64,000 bases of DNA from IMG/VR virus record IMGVR_UViG_3300037488_002392; one strand, 5' to 3'. Made by a program: the position numbers and the translations under genes. The DNA is from a virus. Taxonomy: Duplodnaviria; Heunggongvirae; Uroviricota; Caudoviricetes. Positions 8,849 to 28,975 of the stretch are shown piece by piece (the first letter of the stretch is position 1; every line of letters starts with the position of its first letter). The notes under the pieces are model-generated. The model was not told the DNA's origin. It made no database searches and worked only from the letters and a program-made list of their open reading frames with translations.

Positions 8849-11800
8849 ATGAATTACGAGGAACTTTTAAGAAGGCTTCCAGTGCAGAGGAGTTTGAGGT
8901 ATTGCAATTCTCCTGCTCCTGCTGCTGTTGCTGCTGCTCCTCCTTCTCCTCCCTCTCCTTCTTCTCTTGGTGATATATCCCCGTCATCACTTGACGGTGG
9001 ATGGGGTAATACTCCTGGTGCAGCCCCTCCCGCCGCTCCACCTCCTGGCATGGCTACTCAAGCTGGTGCTATGCAAGGTATCCTTAGTAATCTGGGAATA
9101 GCGTTAAGTACTGGCGGGGGCGCAAGTGCTCCTACGGGGGCACCTTCTATAGCATGGAATCCCTCTCAATCCCTTGCATTTAGTCAAAAGTATCAAATGG
9201 AGCCGACAGGCCTTACCCCCCAAGGATTTGTGTATGGAACACATGGACTTGATAATGGTGGAGGAGGTGGTGGAGGGGGAGATGGTAAATATAGAGTTGG
9301 TGCATCCCCACTGGTTCCAGATGAAGATGCCAAGACAATGGTCACAGAAGGCCCATATATGGGATGGACTGACAGTGGGACTACCAAGGGTAGCAAAGGT
9401 GCGCTAACTAGTATCATAGGTTATGCTAAAGGATTTGGTGTGCCAACGGGGTTAAGTAATCTAGGGTTTACGTACAGCAGTAATCCAATGGCAGCAACTG
9501 CACATAATAACAATATAGGCGAAAAGCATGATGTTGATTTAACCAATACCTTTGAGGGATATTATAGAGCAGTGAATGCAGCTATTCCCCCTGCCAAAGG
9601 GGTGCCTGCTTTTAACCCAGGAGAAAAGGCTTGGAGTGAAATGTGGGGTAGGGCTAATGTGTATACCACTCAACATGAGGGTGATGCGTCTCCTAAGAAT
9701 ATGGTCGCCATACTAGGTGCAGGCCCGAATTCTGAAATAGATAGTGGCTCAAATACTAGTGTAGAAGACCTTATAGGTGTTAATGGCAAAATCTTACTAT
9801 ATTCAGACAATAAACCAGTAAAAGGATATGTTACAAGGGATAACGAAGGTAAAATAATAGCTCAGTCCCATGTTGCTTATAATGCTGATGGTTCTGTAGC
9901 GTCAGTTAGTGGTGCATTAGTGGGGACAGGGTTTATGAAGGCTGGGCAAAAGATTATCTCACTAATCACGGTAACCCCATCAGAGGGTAACATATGGGCA
10001 CAACTCAGGGCTGGCGTATCTCCTAACACTGACTTGTTAGTAGAAGCTGAACATCAAGCATATGTCAACGGTGTGGCTAATGGCGAGAATGTTGATGGGA
10101 TAAGTAATAGGCCAGCAACTGCATATGGGGTGTTGGCTGCTGCGGGGTATTCCCAAGCTGCTAATGCTGCATATGGTAATGCGGTAAATGTCGCACAGAT
10201 GAAAGCCAATGCGGAAGGTACAGTGGGGCCGATAACACGGGCAAACATGGAACTGGCAGAAGGGGTTGCGGTTTATGATAAGAAAGGCAATGAGAAAGCA
10301 CCGACATTACGATGGGATTTAGTAACGGGCAAGGTCTTGGTTCTGCCAGGAGCAGTTGCGCCACAGCCTTCAAGTGATGGGTTAGTAAGTGTTGCTCCTA
10401 AGAACTGGATAGAGTGGGGAGACTTCGTTAAGATGGCTAACTCAGCAGATTTCAAAGGCATAGGACAAATTCTTGATTCAACAGAGAGAGCCAAATATAT
10501 AGATGTATTGCAGAAGGCTGCGGAACTCTATGTTAAGGCAGCGGAGGCTGCCCCAAGTAAGTTTGCTATAGATAATAAGTTAGATGGTAAGGAGAAGGAG
10601 GCGATAGTAGCAATTATAAATGGTGCTAAGACCAGTGGAGGTACTGATTGGGTTAAAGCAAAATATAACATAGAAGATATGCGGAGGGGGATTAATCAAG
10701 CCCTTAGTATGCCATTAGGGACTGAGTACATTCCTCCTTATAGCAGTGAAATAAAACCAAAGATTGAAGATGGCGCAGGTCGCTTTAATGCTGTAGAAAG
10801 CGTTTACAATGATATGGTTAAGGAGTATGCCCCAGCGGTAGTGGCTGCAGTAGTAGATTGGGGAGCAGCACTGCGAAAATCATATGGAGAAGCTAGTGTT
10901 CTAGCACAAGAAGCACTTAATTCTTACCAAGTTAGATTATTGCAGACATATGCTAAGTATAAGGGTGATTGGTCTAAAATTGGGCCAGTGATGGCTAAGG
11001 TTGTCGCAGATGCTCAATCAAGTGCAGAATCAATGGAGGGGGCACCAGCGAGTATACTGCCTATGTTCTCTCAGACAATTTTTACTACTAAGGCAGAGAT
11101 AATCCCATCTAATCCTAATATGTCTAAGATAGAGCGTTTGCCTAACGGTTCTTACTTGGCGCAGTATGCAGGTAAGATATTCAATATTAAGATTGATGGT
11201 TCATGGAATAGGTATATAAGTGATGGTGATAAATATGTATTGGTTCCTGAATCCGAGCTTGTTGCAGAGGATGCTGAATTAGCTAATGCAATCATTGCAG
11301 AAATTAAGAATGAAGGGGCAGCGGTTGTGGTACCAGGAAAAACTGAGGCAAAGGTTGAGTCTCATCTTGAAGAAGAGATGCCGTTGCCTTATGGTGCTCC
11401 GTCAAAACCACTACGGGGTGAGTTAATTCATTTAAAGGAAGGGGCTATAACTCAAGTCCCAACTCAACAGGCTGAATTTACTGGGATGCTCACTGATAAC
11501 ACGTCTGTTAAACTTCCCAATGTGCTTAACAATCCTGCTATTAGAGTAGTAGGTGTTGCGGATAATCTGGAAGCGATAGGCATCGAGTATGGTGGGCATA
11601 ATTGGGCAGTGGAGAAGCGTGTAGTAGATGGGAAGGTTGTTTATGCAGCATGTTGGGGAGGGTCTTGCAAGCCAACTATCTACGATTCGTATGATTCTGT
11701 AGTTGGAGCAATAACTAGCGGAAAAGTAAAATTCTCAGAAACAGAAGCCAATGATACTTGGGAAAGTTTGACTAAGATGTATGCGCTAAAACCAGTTGCA

Positions 11801-28975: not shown

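Follow-up and report, generated by a model that had tools for sequence, protein, structure and literature searches.

A 6708-residue multidomain protein encoded by a virus, and its place in a family of very large, mosaic proteins with a shared C-terminal domain

Phages and conjugative elements encode a class of very large proteins, the polyvalent proteins, that join unrelated enzymatic domains in one polypeptide and whose genes lie beside late genes; they are packaged and delivered with the DNA, and their release is proposed to be autoproteolytic, through interspersed zincin-like metallopeptidase domains (Iyer, Burroughs, Anand, de Souza and Aravind, 2017, J Bacteriol; PMC5512222). Examples include DdrB/DarB of phage P1, the virion RNA polymerase of phage N4 and a giant protein of an Acetonema longum prophage, and the published cargo includes GNAT and 2H-phosphoesterase domains (Iyer et al., 2017). 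The subject of this analysis is a stretch of 64,000 nucleotides from the IMG/VR virus record IMGVR_UViG_3300037488_002392, here called the window, in which a single open reading frame (ORF) at 8849..28975 on the plus strand encodes a multidomain protein of 6708 residues, referred to below as the giant protein. Judged from sequence comparison, it appears to be the largest known member of a previously undescribed, fast-shuffling family of very large viral proteins. The reading that we favour, at a probability of roughly 0.45, is that it is a virion-associated, host-delivered polyvalent cargo polyprotein that is cut up by its own metallopeptidase modules.

The giant protein resembles the polyvalent class in being a very large single polypeptide with domains of at least two unrelated activities (three HExxH modules plus one GNAT-like and one thioredoxin-like module, with NUDIX and LigT domains in relatives), in an architecture that varies widely among relatives, and perhaps in being the product of a mobile-element gene beside late-type genes. 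Class members carry one to five interspersed zincin-like HExxH domains (Iyer et al., 2017), and the giant protein carries three candidate modules of this kind; GNAT or GNAT-like and 2H-phosphoesterase cargo is common to both, the latter in relative L016. It departs from the class in having no detectable homology to the signature domains, in HExxH modules whose family is not in Pfam and gave only 7 hits when 1.84 billion proteins were searched with its profile, and in a novel C-terminal domain that unites its family, a feature not described for the class. A recognisable portal-terminase system or type IV secretion system is also missing around the gene, in the window and in related loci. To our knowledge, 6708 residues is far above the multi-thousand-residue examples of polyvalent proteins.

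As far as can be judged from the nucleotide sequence, the ORF is genuine. Its ATG lies 14 nt past the upstream stop codon and is preceded by a Shine-Dalgarno-like AAAGGGA, and both the ORF listing and an independent translation give 6708 codons with one terminal stop, for a product of about 740 kDa that is identical to the gene call (P0001) made by the Joint Genome Institute (JGI) on the 92,815-bp source contig. Counted in 3-kb segments along the ORF, stop codons number 0 in frame 0 and 70-134 per 1000 codons in the other two frames, and codon-position GC content follows GC1>GC2>GC3, as in adjacent genes; together these properties exclude a chance ORF of this length. The alternative that a chimaeric assembly or sequencing error fused several genes by false read-through is scarcely credible. 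It draws on a source that is one metagenome assembly, on the heterogeneous composition of the protein, and on P0060, a 104-residue database protein which indicates that chimeric fragments from the region of the giant gene do occur: 27 of its residues are identical to residues ~2270-2296 of the giant protein (in HExxH module 2; window ~15656-15736), its flanks are unrelated, and chimerism or a frameshift in a different assembly, made from this virus or one very close to it, is its probable origin. Against false read-through stand the stop-free frame and gene-like codon-position GC throughout the 6708 codons, and the confinement of DNA tandem repeats in the gene to 28304-28536, where the periods of 30, 15, 12 and 3 are all in-frame. 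The internal protein repeats, at 22-50% mutual identity in self-BLAST, are too diverged to mislead an assembler, so that collapse at these repeats is unlikely. In addition, intact syntenic ORFs of 1411, 2896, 2907, 2967, 3027, 3261, 3576 and 4981 residues with the same C-terminus are present in eight independent metagenome assemblies. The uninterrupted 6708-residue frame had been reported in an earlier note on this DNA, made without database searches, and it is borne out by the translation, the JGI call, the frame statistics and the relatives.

These relatives were reached through 90%-identity cluster mates of the neighbouring genes, by scanning JGI metagenomes for a pattern from the C-terminal domain, and through the HExxH profile search. 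A word-indexed protein search returned the query alone when residues 1709-6708 were used and short fragments only when the C-terminal domain was used, in one case missing even the cluster of the query itself; such a search misses long family members from the same sources, and its null result wrongly implies an orphan protein. The pattern scan gave 13 loci, the profile search added two full-length members (P0058, 3576 residues, and P0061, 2967 residues), and the contigs reached through the cluster mates carry a giant-gene fragment of at least 4132 residues in L001/L002 and a 4981-residue gene in L004. The complete members are the eight listed above and the window protein, which is the largest. 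They share a C-terminal domain of ~130 residues that always stands at the extreme C-terminus, with 50-90% identity across the 13 metagenome loci, L001, L004, P0058 and P0061, and that is usually preceded by a Pro/Arg/Gly-rich linker (for example in P0049, and with an Extensin-like match in L001). The remainder of the family is mosaic, and 38% of the residues of the window protein match any relative. A Cys-containing module, W-Y-K..G.W..G.Y.Y.P...C-x5-6-C...D...G[IV]+Y[IV] (the Cys module), is common in the family, whereas only some members have the HExxH, GNAT or thioredoxin-like modules. The extent of shuffling is evident in L018, where the neighbouring genes are 85-95% identical to those of the window, yet the first ~1700 residues of the giant protein are unrelated and 89% identity begins at the Cys module.

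The family is known to date from metagenome-derived sequence of this kind alone: no relatives were found in 50,697 deposited phage records (megablast, tblastn), in which matches are limited to the GNAT module and to accessory neighbours (the SPFH protein and GHKL ATPases described below), and none in 72,556 plasmids. The C-terminal domain and the most conserved neighbouring gene are absent from 2.9 million IMG/VR contigs and from 185,579 GTDB species genomes. The shared domain had been missed in the earlier note, which took the PEPRP/RGG stretch for the tail of the protein; the stretch is present, and it is an internal linker that precedes the conserved, globular-looking 140 residues at the C-terminus.

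A second C-terminal signature is found outside the family. The motif P-[IV]-[VA]-A-P-[ML]-P lies near the C-terminus of four otherwise dissimilar proteins of the window (7291-8250, 32546-33112, 51717-52181 and 52400-53128; motif sites at 8098-8115, 33002-33019, 52089-52106 and 52991-53008) and is followed by a basic tail of 20-45 residues that ends like ...KIS.VG.[IV]R. The six-frame translation of the window has no other site, and the motif is kept in orthologues from L001-L005, L012, L015 and L019. The giant proteins of L013, L014, L016 and L017 have a similar tail, 'GYPQP..RRY..Q.S..K', and these shared residues may represent a common targeting or processing signal.

The HExxH modules were characterized in an alignment of 11 modules from the window protein, its relatives and two small solo proteins (P0056 and P0057). 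HExxH is invariant in all 11, a conserved Glu in E-x-[FY]-A lies about 60-70 residues past it, and the modules, which are about 220 residues long, share the N-terminal motif PxP...W..Y..Y.[IV]P.E.QQK. This matches at the motif level the gluzincin arrangement given for the metallopeptidases of polyvalent proteins, in which an HExxH helix and a downstream helix with a Glu are accompanied by a three-stranded sheet (Iyer et al., 2017). Single modules score under the Pfam thresholds, module 3 showing a weak similarity to Peptidase_M78. When the 11 modules are concatenated, M48 (1.3e-9), M78 (2.8e-9), SprT-like (2e-5), M13 and Mx are matched, with E-values that are inflated, as in the corresponding GNAT search, by summing homologous copies. 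All of these are zinc-peptidase families, and this exclusivity, rather than the E-values, is the informative part of the search. Of the 7 proteins recovered by the profile search mentioned above, 4 are other large family members of 1687-3576 residues. The modules are thus best described as a putative new gluzincin-like family that Pfam does not contain. With the minimal gluzincins (M78 ImmA/IrrE, M48 and SprT/WLM), which are their sole Pfam similarities, they have in common an HExxH on a predicted helix and a conserved Glu on a downstream helix; they differ in that the match is confined to ~25-35 residues around HExxH, in their own N-terminal motif and length, and in a fold that is a prediction from motifs. 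The internal super-repeat recognised in the earlier note is confirmed and consists of three HExxH, three Cys and two short helical modules.

The remaining enzyme modules are of unrelated kinds. A CxxC stretch at about 13270 had been called thioredoxin-like, and this assignment, still tentative, is supported by a family hidden Markov model built from the modules of L011, L014 and P0061, which matches the window module at E=8.9e-7 (in a small database); the window's CRMC and TPET align to WCxPC and VP[QV]T of the L011 and L014 modules. The modules of the relatives match Pfam Thioredoxin with 19.8 bits singly and 45 bits concatenated, and the window module by itself has no Pfam match. The proposal of a GNAT-like stretch at 21990-22150 is likewise supported as a tentative assignment, by phrog_2563 at 2.1e-19 and by tblastn, in which 133 phage records are matched, down to 6e-11; among the 30 matches listed, every annotated product is an acetyltransferase and the remainder are 'hypothetical protein'. 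Pfam Acetyltransf_10 is matched only at E=0.0068, below the cut-off, by concatenated homologous modules, and the whole protein by itself gives no Pfam hit for it. The module contains GKKGEGA, to be compared with the acetyl-CoA-binding motif A (xxxGxG/A) of GNAT enzymes. It is missing at the equivalent place in L010 and is present in two copies in the L001 relative. Other cargo is found in the relatives, with a NUDIX domain in L014 (Pfam, 7.7e-9) and a LigT 2H-phosphoesterase in L016 (Pfam, 4.4e-12). Scans of the whole giant protein (Pfam, PHROGs, NCBIfam, and phmmer against PDB sequences) reveal almost nothing beyond phrog_2563 on the GNAT-like module.

Some 1700 residues toward the C-terminus form a Pro/Gly-poor helical repeat region that is almost entirely unique to the window protein and is unmatched in relatives, being absent from L010, for example. 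Self-BLAST identifies three repeats of 143 residues at residues 5460-5893 and a pair at residues 5932-5998 and 6076-6142, and three repeats of ~50 residues near residues 5040-5170 are visible by eye in the translation only. Pro plus Gly make up 3-5%, and there is a match to Pfam Apolipoprotein at 6.9e-13, below the cut-off. The earlier description of coiled-coil repeats holds for the repeats and the helical composition but not for the coiled coil, as the 3.5-residue hydrophobic (heptad) periodicity is absent on testing.

One explanation that gives this region a central role is that the giant protein is a structural virion component, whether tape-measure-like, scaffold, fibre or DNA-condensing, in which the C-terminus would dock, the helical region and RGG linker would organise tail, interior or genome, and the enzymes would be accessory. 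We consider this unlikely. The long helical stretch, the basic RGG/PEPRP stretch, the conserved C-terminus and the operon with surface and membrane proteins all agree with it, and tape-measure proteins with embedded enzymes are themselves large and partly helical, combine catalytic modules with a C-terminus that is conserved, and are encoded after two small genes; the two small genes before the giant gene recall the chaperone-then-tape-measure order. The upstream pair, however, encodes membrane proteins with two transmembrane helices (2-TM) each and with their own starts, not frameshifted chaperones; genes for a tail tube, sheath, baseplate, portal or capsid are not seen in the window or related loci; Pfam and PHROGs contain no tape-measure match; family lengths span 1411-6708 residues, a five-fold range, with the helical region missing in relatives such as L010; and in the near relative L018 the N-terminal portion is wholly different. 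A tape-measure gene is expected between the frameshifted tail-assembly chaperone pair and the genes of the distal tail or baseplate, with a length that close relatives share. The suggestion of a tape-measure-like scaffold in the earlier note is therefore not sustained, and the profile searches that it proposed for recognising a known tape-measure or RHS-type protein give no Pfam hit for either.

The favoured reading of an injected polyprotein is preferred because three zincin-like modules are interspersed among unrelated enzyme modules, the cargo is swapped in relatives, the place in the operon is conserved, and the protein looks cytoplasmic. The last point follows from N-x-S/T sequons at expectation (37 observed versus 37.6), few hydrophobic segments and no evident signal peptide at the N-terminus (by inspection of the sequence, no predictor being used), which together suggest an internal rather than surface-exposed protein. 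The giant protein would be made late, along with the neighbouring membrane and surface proteins, and its conserved C-terminal domain, perhaps with the basic RGG linker bound to DNA, would recruit it into the particle. It would then enter the host cell together with the viral genome, where its metallopeptidase modules would cut the polypeptide into units, possibly helped by the adjacent transglutaminase-like protease. The freed enzymes, an acetyltransferase and a thiol-disulfide oxidoreductase in the window and nucleotide-signal hydrolases in the relatives, would act in the host cytoplasm, where they might modify host proteins or blunt defence, and the fast swapping of modules would reflect an arms race.

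Tailed phages provide several precedents for proteins that are packaged in the virion and ejected as cargo, among them the internal proteins and Alt of T4, gp14-16 of T7, the virion RNA polymerase of N4 and the cargo proteins of crAss-like phages. The logic proposed here, of late synthesis, a dedicated targeting element and release into the host with the DNA, is the same. These proteins differ from the giant protein in that there is no homology of sequence or context, and in the position of the targeting element, which in T4 packaging is an N-terminal capsid-targeting sequence and in the giant protein would be C-terminal.

Several observations weigh against delivery as a self-cleaving cargo polyprotein. 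The timing, packaging, delivery, cleavage and targets of the giant protein are all inferred; of the earlier interpretation, the 'virion-associated or injected polyprotein' stands as the best available account on the same terms. The helical repeat region makes up about a quarter of the protein, has no evident enzymatic role and would fit a structural function. MuF, ArdC-N, SNF2-methylase-LPD36, DarA, PBECR and the LPDs give no Pfam, PHROG or NCBIfam hit in the window protein and seven relatives, and membership of the polyvalent class is functional, not by homology. HExxH module 1 has an Arg at the aligned position of the third-ligand Glu and may be degenerate, and the E-values of the concatenated zincin and GNAT searches are subject to the inflation already described. 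AlphaFold2 models are unusable both for HExxH module 1 with Cys module 1 (5-row alignment; predicted local distance difference test, pLDDT, 45.2) and for the C-terminal domain (12-row alignment; pLDDT 41.9), and Foldseek searches of PDB and BFVD with these low-pLDDT models return nothing at E<=1e-3. Neither the 64-kb window nor the related loci, about 150 kb in all, contain a recognisable capsid, portal, terminase, tail or type IV secretion gene, and the statement that the gene lies near virion genes leans on unannotated membrane and surface proteins.

Polymorphic toxin and adhesin systems typically include huge modular proteins in which one terminal domain is conserved and the remainder varies, and the giant protein, with surface proteins among its neighbours, could be regarded in that light as a secreted or surface toxin or adhesin of the RHS/MafB/T9SS-cargo-like kind, encoded by a genomic island of a cell, with the C-terminal domain as a secretion or anchoring signal. 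This is highly improbable. Neither the N-terminus, in which a signal peptide is not evident by inspection, nor the unenriched sequons point to secretion; Pfam has no RHS/YD, haemagglutinin, Por_Secre_tail or toxin hits; a conserved C-terminus with a variable N-terminus is the reverse of a variable C-terminal toxin; and GNAT, NUDIX and 2H modules require substrates in the cytoplasm. The gene is set in phage-like DNA that has 3-4 homing or HNH endonucleases, members of PHROG families and numerous tiny ORFs but no housekeeping genes or tRNAs, and the family is absent from the GTDB species genomes.

It is also conceivable, if in our judgement improbable, that the protein acts inside the infected cell, cut or uncut, and is not packaged, as an anti-defence hub or as a scaffold of a replication or assembly factory, with a C-terminal domain through which it would oligomerise or dock to a viral complex bound to a membrane. 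Synthesis in situ would suit the same enzymatic modules just as well, packaging is inferred only, several of the membrane-protein neighbours could build an intracellular complex, and the four smaller proteins with a related C-terminal tail motif suggest a shared docking partner. This is opposed by the position of the gene in a long stretch that has no promoter-like sites and encodes sequon-rich surface proteins, away from the 46-60 kb region with its arrays of small early-type ORFs, and by the argument that a fusion of many activities makes sense for co-delivery and less for synthesis within the cell (Iyer et al., 2017).

If the delivered-polyprotein reading is correct, the giant protein is the largest and most elaborate case of the polyvalent strategy, in a lineage whose relatives have been neither cultured nor catalogued. 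A more far-reaching proposal, which is tentative and on balance doubtful, is that the giant protein and its relatives constitute a new system of protein delivery, used by viruses of a lineage that current pipelines fail to recognise as viral, in which the C-terminal domain, with a contribution from the basic tail motif shared with at least four smaller proteins of the same genome, is the packaging or targeting signal, up to 740 kDa of swappable cargo is carried per polypeptide and new zincins dismantle the cargo in the host. The lineage is absent from the IMG/VR contigs, HK97, portal and terminase genes are lacking in the regions seen, and its morphogenetic region is rich in membrane proteins. 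A group of 33-104-kb elements, among them the contigs Ga0393277_0000283, Ga0494801_0000025, Ga0376277_0002411 and JAEAME010000129.1, is apparently missed by hallmark-gene-based virus detection. What appears to be new here are the C-terminal anchoring domain, the zincin family, the Cys module and the uncatalogued lineage, the concept of polyvalent-type cargo being known. The family offers a natural series, from 1.4 to 6.7 thousand residues with the same C-terminus and swapped cargo, for studying the recruitment and delivery of very large viral proteins, and a source for mining counter-defence enzymes (GNAT, NUDIX, 2H and thioredoxin-like) and self-processing peptidases.

Table 1. Modules of the giant protein and the genes upstream of it, in window coordinates
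Feature	Position	Residues	Strand	Basis or remark
DUF2341 protein, 1220 residues, C-terminal transmembrane helices	11-3673		+	conserved upstream partner
fn3 protein, 595 residues, signal peptide, 3 C-terminal transmembrane helices	within 11..5465		+	conserved upstream partner
Two small 2-TM proteins, 154 and 105 residues	6459..7233		+	upstream of giant gene in every relative seen
Window-specific insert: 319-residue protein and 195-residue transglutaminase-like (Cys-protease fold) protein	7291..8834		+	Pfam
Pro/Ala/Ser/Gly low-complexity N-terminus	8906..9286	20-146	+	translation
Thioredoxin-like module, CRMC (CxxC) and TPET cis-Pro-type loop	13211..13603	about 1455-1585	+	family hidden Markov model, alignment
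HExxH module 1, HELSH	13721..14398	1625-1850	+	self-BLAST, motif alignment
Cys module 1	14474..14845	1876-1999	+	self-BLAST; 89% identical to L018 counterpart
Short helical module 1, GYTIPQLKQIA...	14951..15160	2035-2104	+	self-BLAST; 64% identity to start of L001 fragment
HExxH module 2, HEFGH, downstream ANEIYAS	15440..16108	2198-2420	+	self-BLAST, motif alignment
HExxH module 3, HESGH, downstream DNETFAE	16610..17248	2588-2800	+	motif alignment, weak Peptidase_M78
Cys module 2	17720..18004	2958-3052	+	self-BLAST
Short helical module 2	18140..18358	3098-3170	+	self-BLAST
Cys module 3, most diverged of the copies	18761..19033	3305-3395	+	comparison with other Cys modules
Block without assigned function	19505..21850	3553-4334	+	L010, 29% identity over 820 residues; partly P0058
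GNAT-like acetyltransferase module, GKKGEGA motif	21836..22318	4330-4490	+	phrog_2563, tblastn
Second block without assigned function	22307..22888	4487-4680	+	42% identity to L010
Long Pro/Gly-poor helical repeat region, ~1700 residues	22946..28198	about 4700-6450	+	composition, self-BLAST
PEPRP and RGG basic low-complexity linker	28274..28552	6476-6568	+	translation, tandem-repeat scan
Conserved C-terminal domain (140 residues) with short tail ...TQVSSVG	28553..28972	6569-6708	+	50-90% identity across family

The order of the modules is given in Table 1. The Pro/Ala/Ser and poly-Gly N-terminus noticed earlier is present, and a Gly/Ala/Pro-rich N-terminus is also found in family member P0055; for the about 1300 residues that follow the low-complexity stretch in the window protein no relative is detectable in any of the collections searched. 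HExxH module 3 contains a hydrophobic stretch at residues 2653-2671. A linker-like motif, 'EMP.LGAP..KP[LM]RGELI', occurs twice (residues ~843-860 and ~2533-2551; window ~11375 and ~16445), with a looser copy at residues ~2885-2905 (~17500); its core is 'GAP..KP[LM]RGELI', and the copies follow the N-terminal region, HExxH module 2 and HExxH module 3. These 2-3 copies are confined to the giant protein, the motif not being found in relatives, and a role as a cleavage or docking site is speculation.

The order of genes, from the DUF2341 protein through the fn3 protein and the two 2-TM proteins to the giant protein, is the same in every relative. The 2-TM genes stand directly upstream of the giant gene in all relatives, and the window alone differs, in carrying an insert of two genes that is absent in L018, L011 and L022. 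The 195-residue product of the insert matches Pfam DUF553 (5.6e-5) and Transglut_core (3.2e-4); a relationship of the 319-residue product to the Cys module was considered and rejected, the match at E=0.046 not being significant. The DUF2341 protein has 34 N-x-S/T sequons against a shuffled expectation of 16.1 +/- 3.8, about double. It also has fn3-like segments that recur and, at the C-terminus, about three transmembrane helices. Its appearance is that of a surface or receptor-binding protein that is glycosylated and anchored in a membrane, an unusual feature in a tailed phage. Directly downstream of the giant gene lie a homing endonuclease and then SPFH and transmembrane proteins.

No consensus promoter or strong terminator was found in 1-9200, and well-placed ones occur from 29.9 kb onwards, where sigma-70 consensus promoters and hairpin-plus-T terminators mark the borders of genes. 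Among the promoters is a perfect TTGACA-17-TATAAT at 40132-40104 on the minus strand, 33 nt before the start of the 38659-40071 gene. This pattern and the strong GGAGG ribosome-binding sites indicate a bacterial host and suggest that the giant gene belongs to a long late-type operon. An archaeal spindle-shaped or enveloped virus had been considered on account of the sequon-rich DUF2341 protein, the hydrophobic small neighbours of the giant gene and the literature, and was not adopted in view of the sigma-70 promoters and hairpin-plus-T terminators at gene boundaries. An extended -10 promoter (31522-31551, plus strand) precedes the SPFH gene, and strong hairpin-plus-T terminators at 32481-32507 (plus strand) and 33734-33753 (both strands) lie just past the genes that end at 32464 and 33726.

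Assignment of the window to a prokaryotic virus is plausible from its homing endonucleases and PHROG hits, and no tRNA or housekeeping genes are present in it. Three paralogous free-standing homing endonucleases (NUMOD3 with a Vsr/DUF559-like nuclease) are encoded at 5261-6493, 28972-29865 and 60419-62011. One of them begins within the giant gene's stop codon and has a homologue at the same position in several relatives; homologues are found in L008, L009, L022 (11678-12631) and L023 (18915-19751). An HNH endonuclease is encoded at 48646-49317. The SPFH/Band 7 (HflC-like) protein at 31583-32464, 2.6 kb downstream of the giant gene, matches Pfam at 3.9e-29 and phrog_200, is 87% identical in L001-L003 and has homologues in many phages.

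The sole minus-strand block of the window extends over 34000-46000 and has a GC content of 0.45-0.50, compared with about 0.40, and its AT skew is reversed. Its products include a pair of GHKL/MORC-like HATPase_c_3 proteins (38659-40071 and 42501-44249) as well as a DUF932 protein (44807-45865). The second GHKL ATPase contains an HExxH with weak SprT/WLM similarity, and the best phage match of the 470-residue ATPase, at 31% identity, is in the 485-kb uncultured huge phage LR745208.1. To the right of the window, the related locus L024 encodes a 296-residue P-loop ATPase (3141-4031; Walker A GPEGHGKS, Walker B IGIDEAYD) and, after it, a signal-anchored protein of at least 1453 residues (4356-8714), and positions 63913-63999 of the window match the 122-residue gene that precedes the ATPase. 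This ATPase has no match in PDB sequences or deposited phages, and it may be a small ATPase of the packaging type, which would hint at a particle without a tail.

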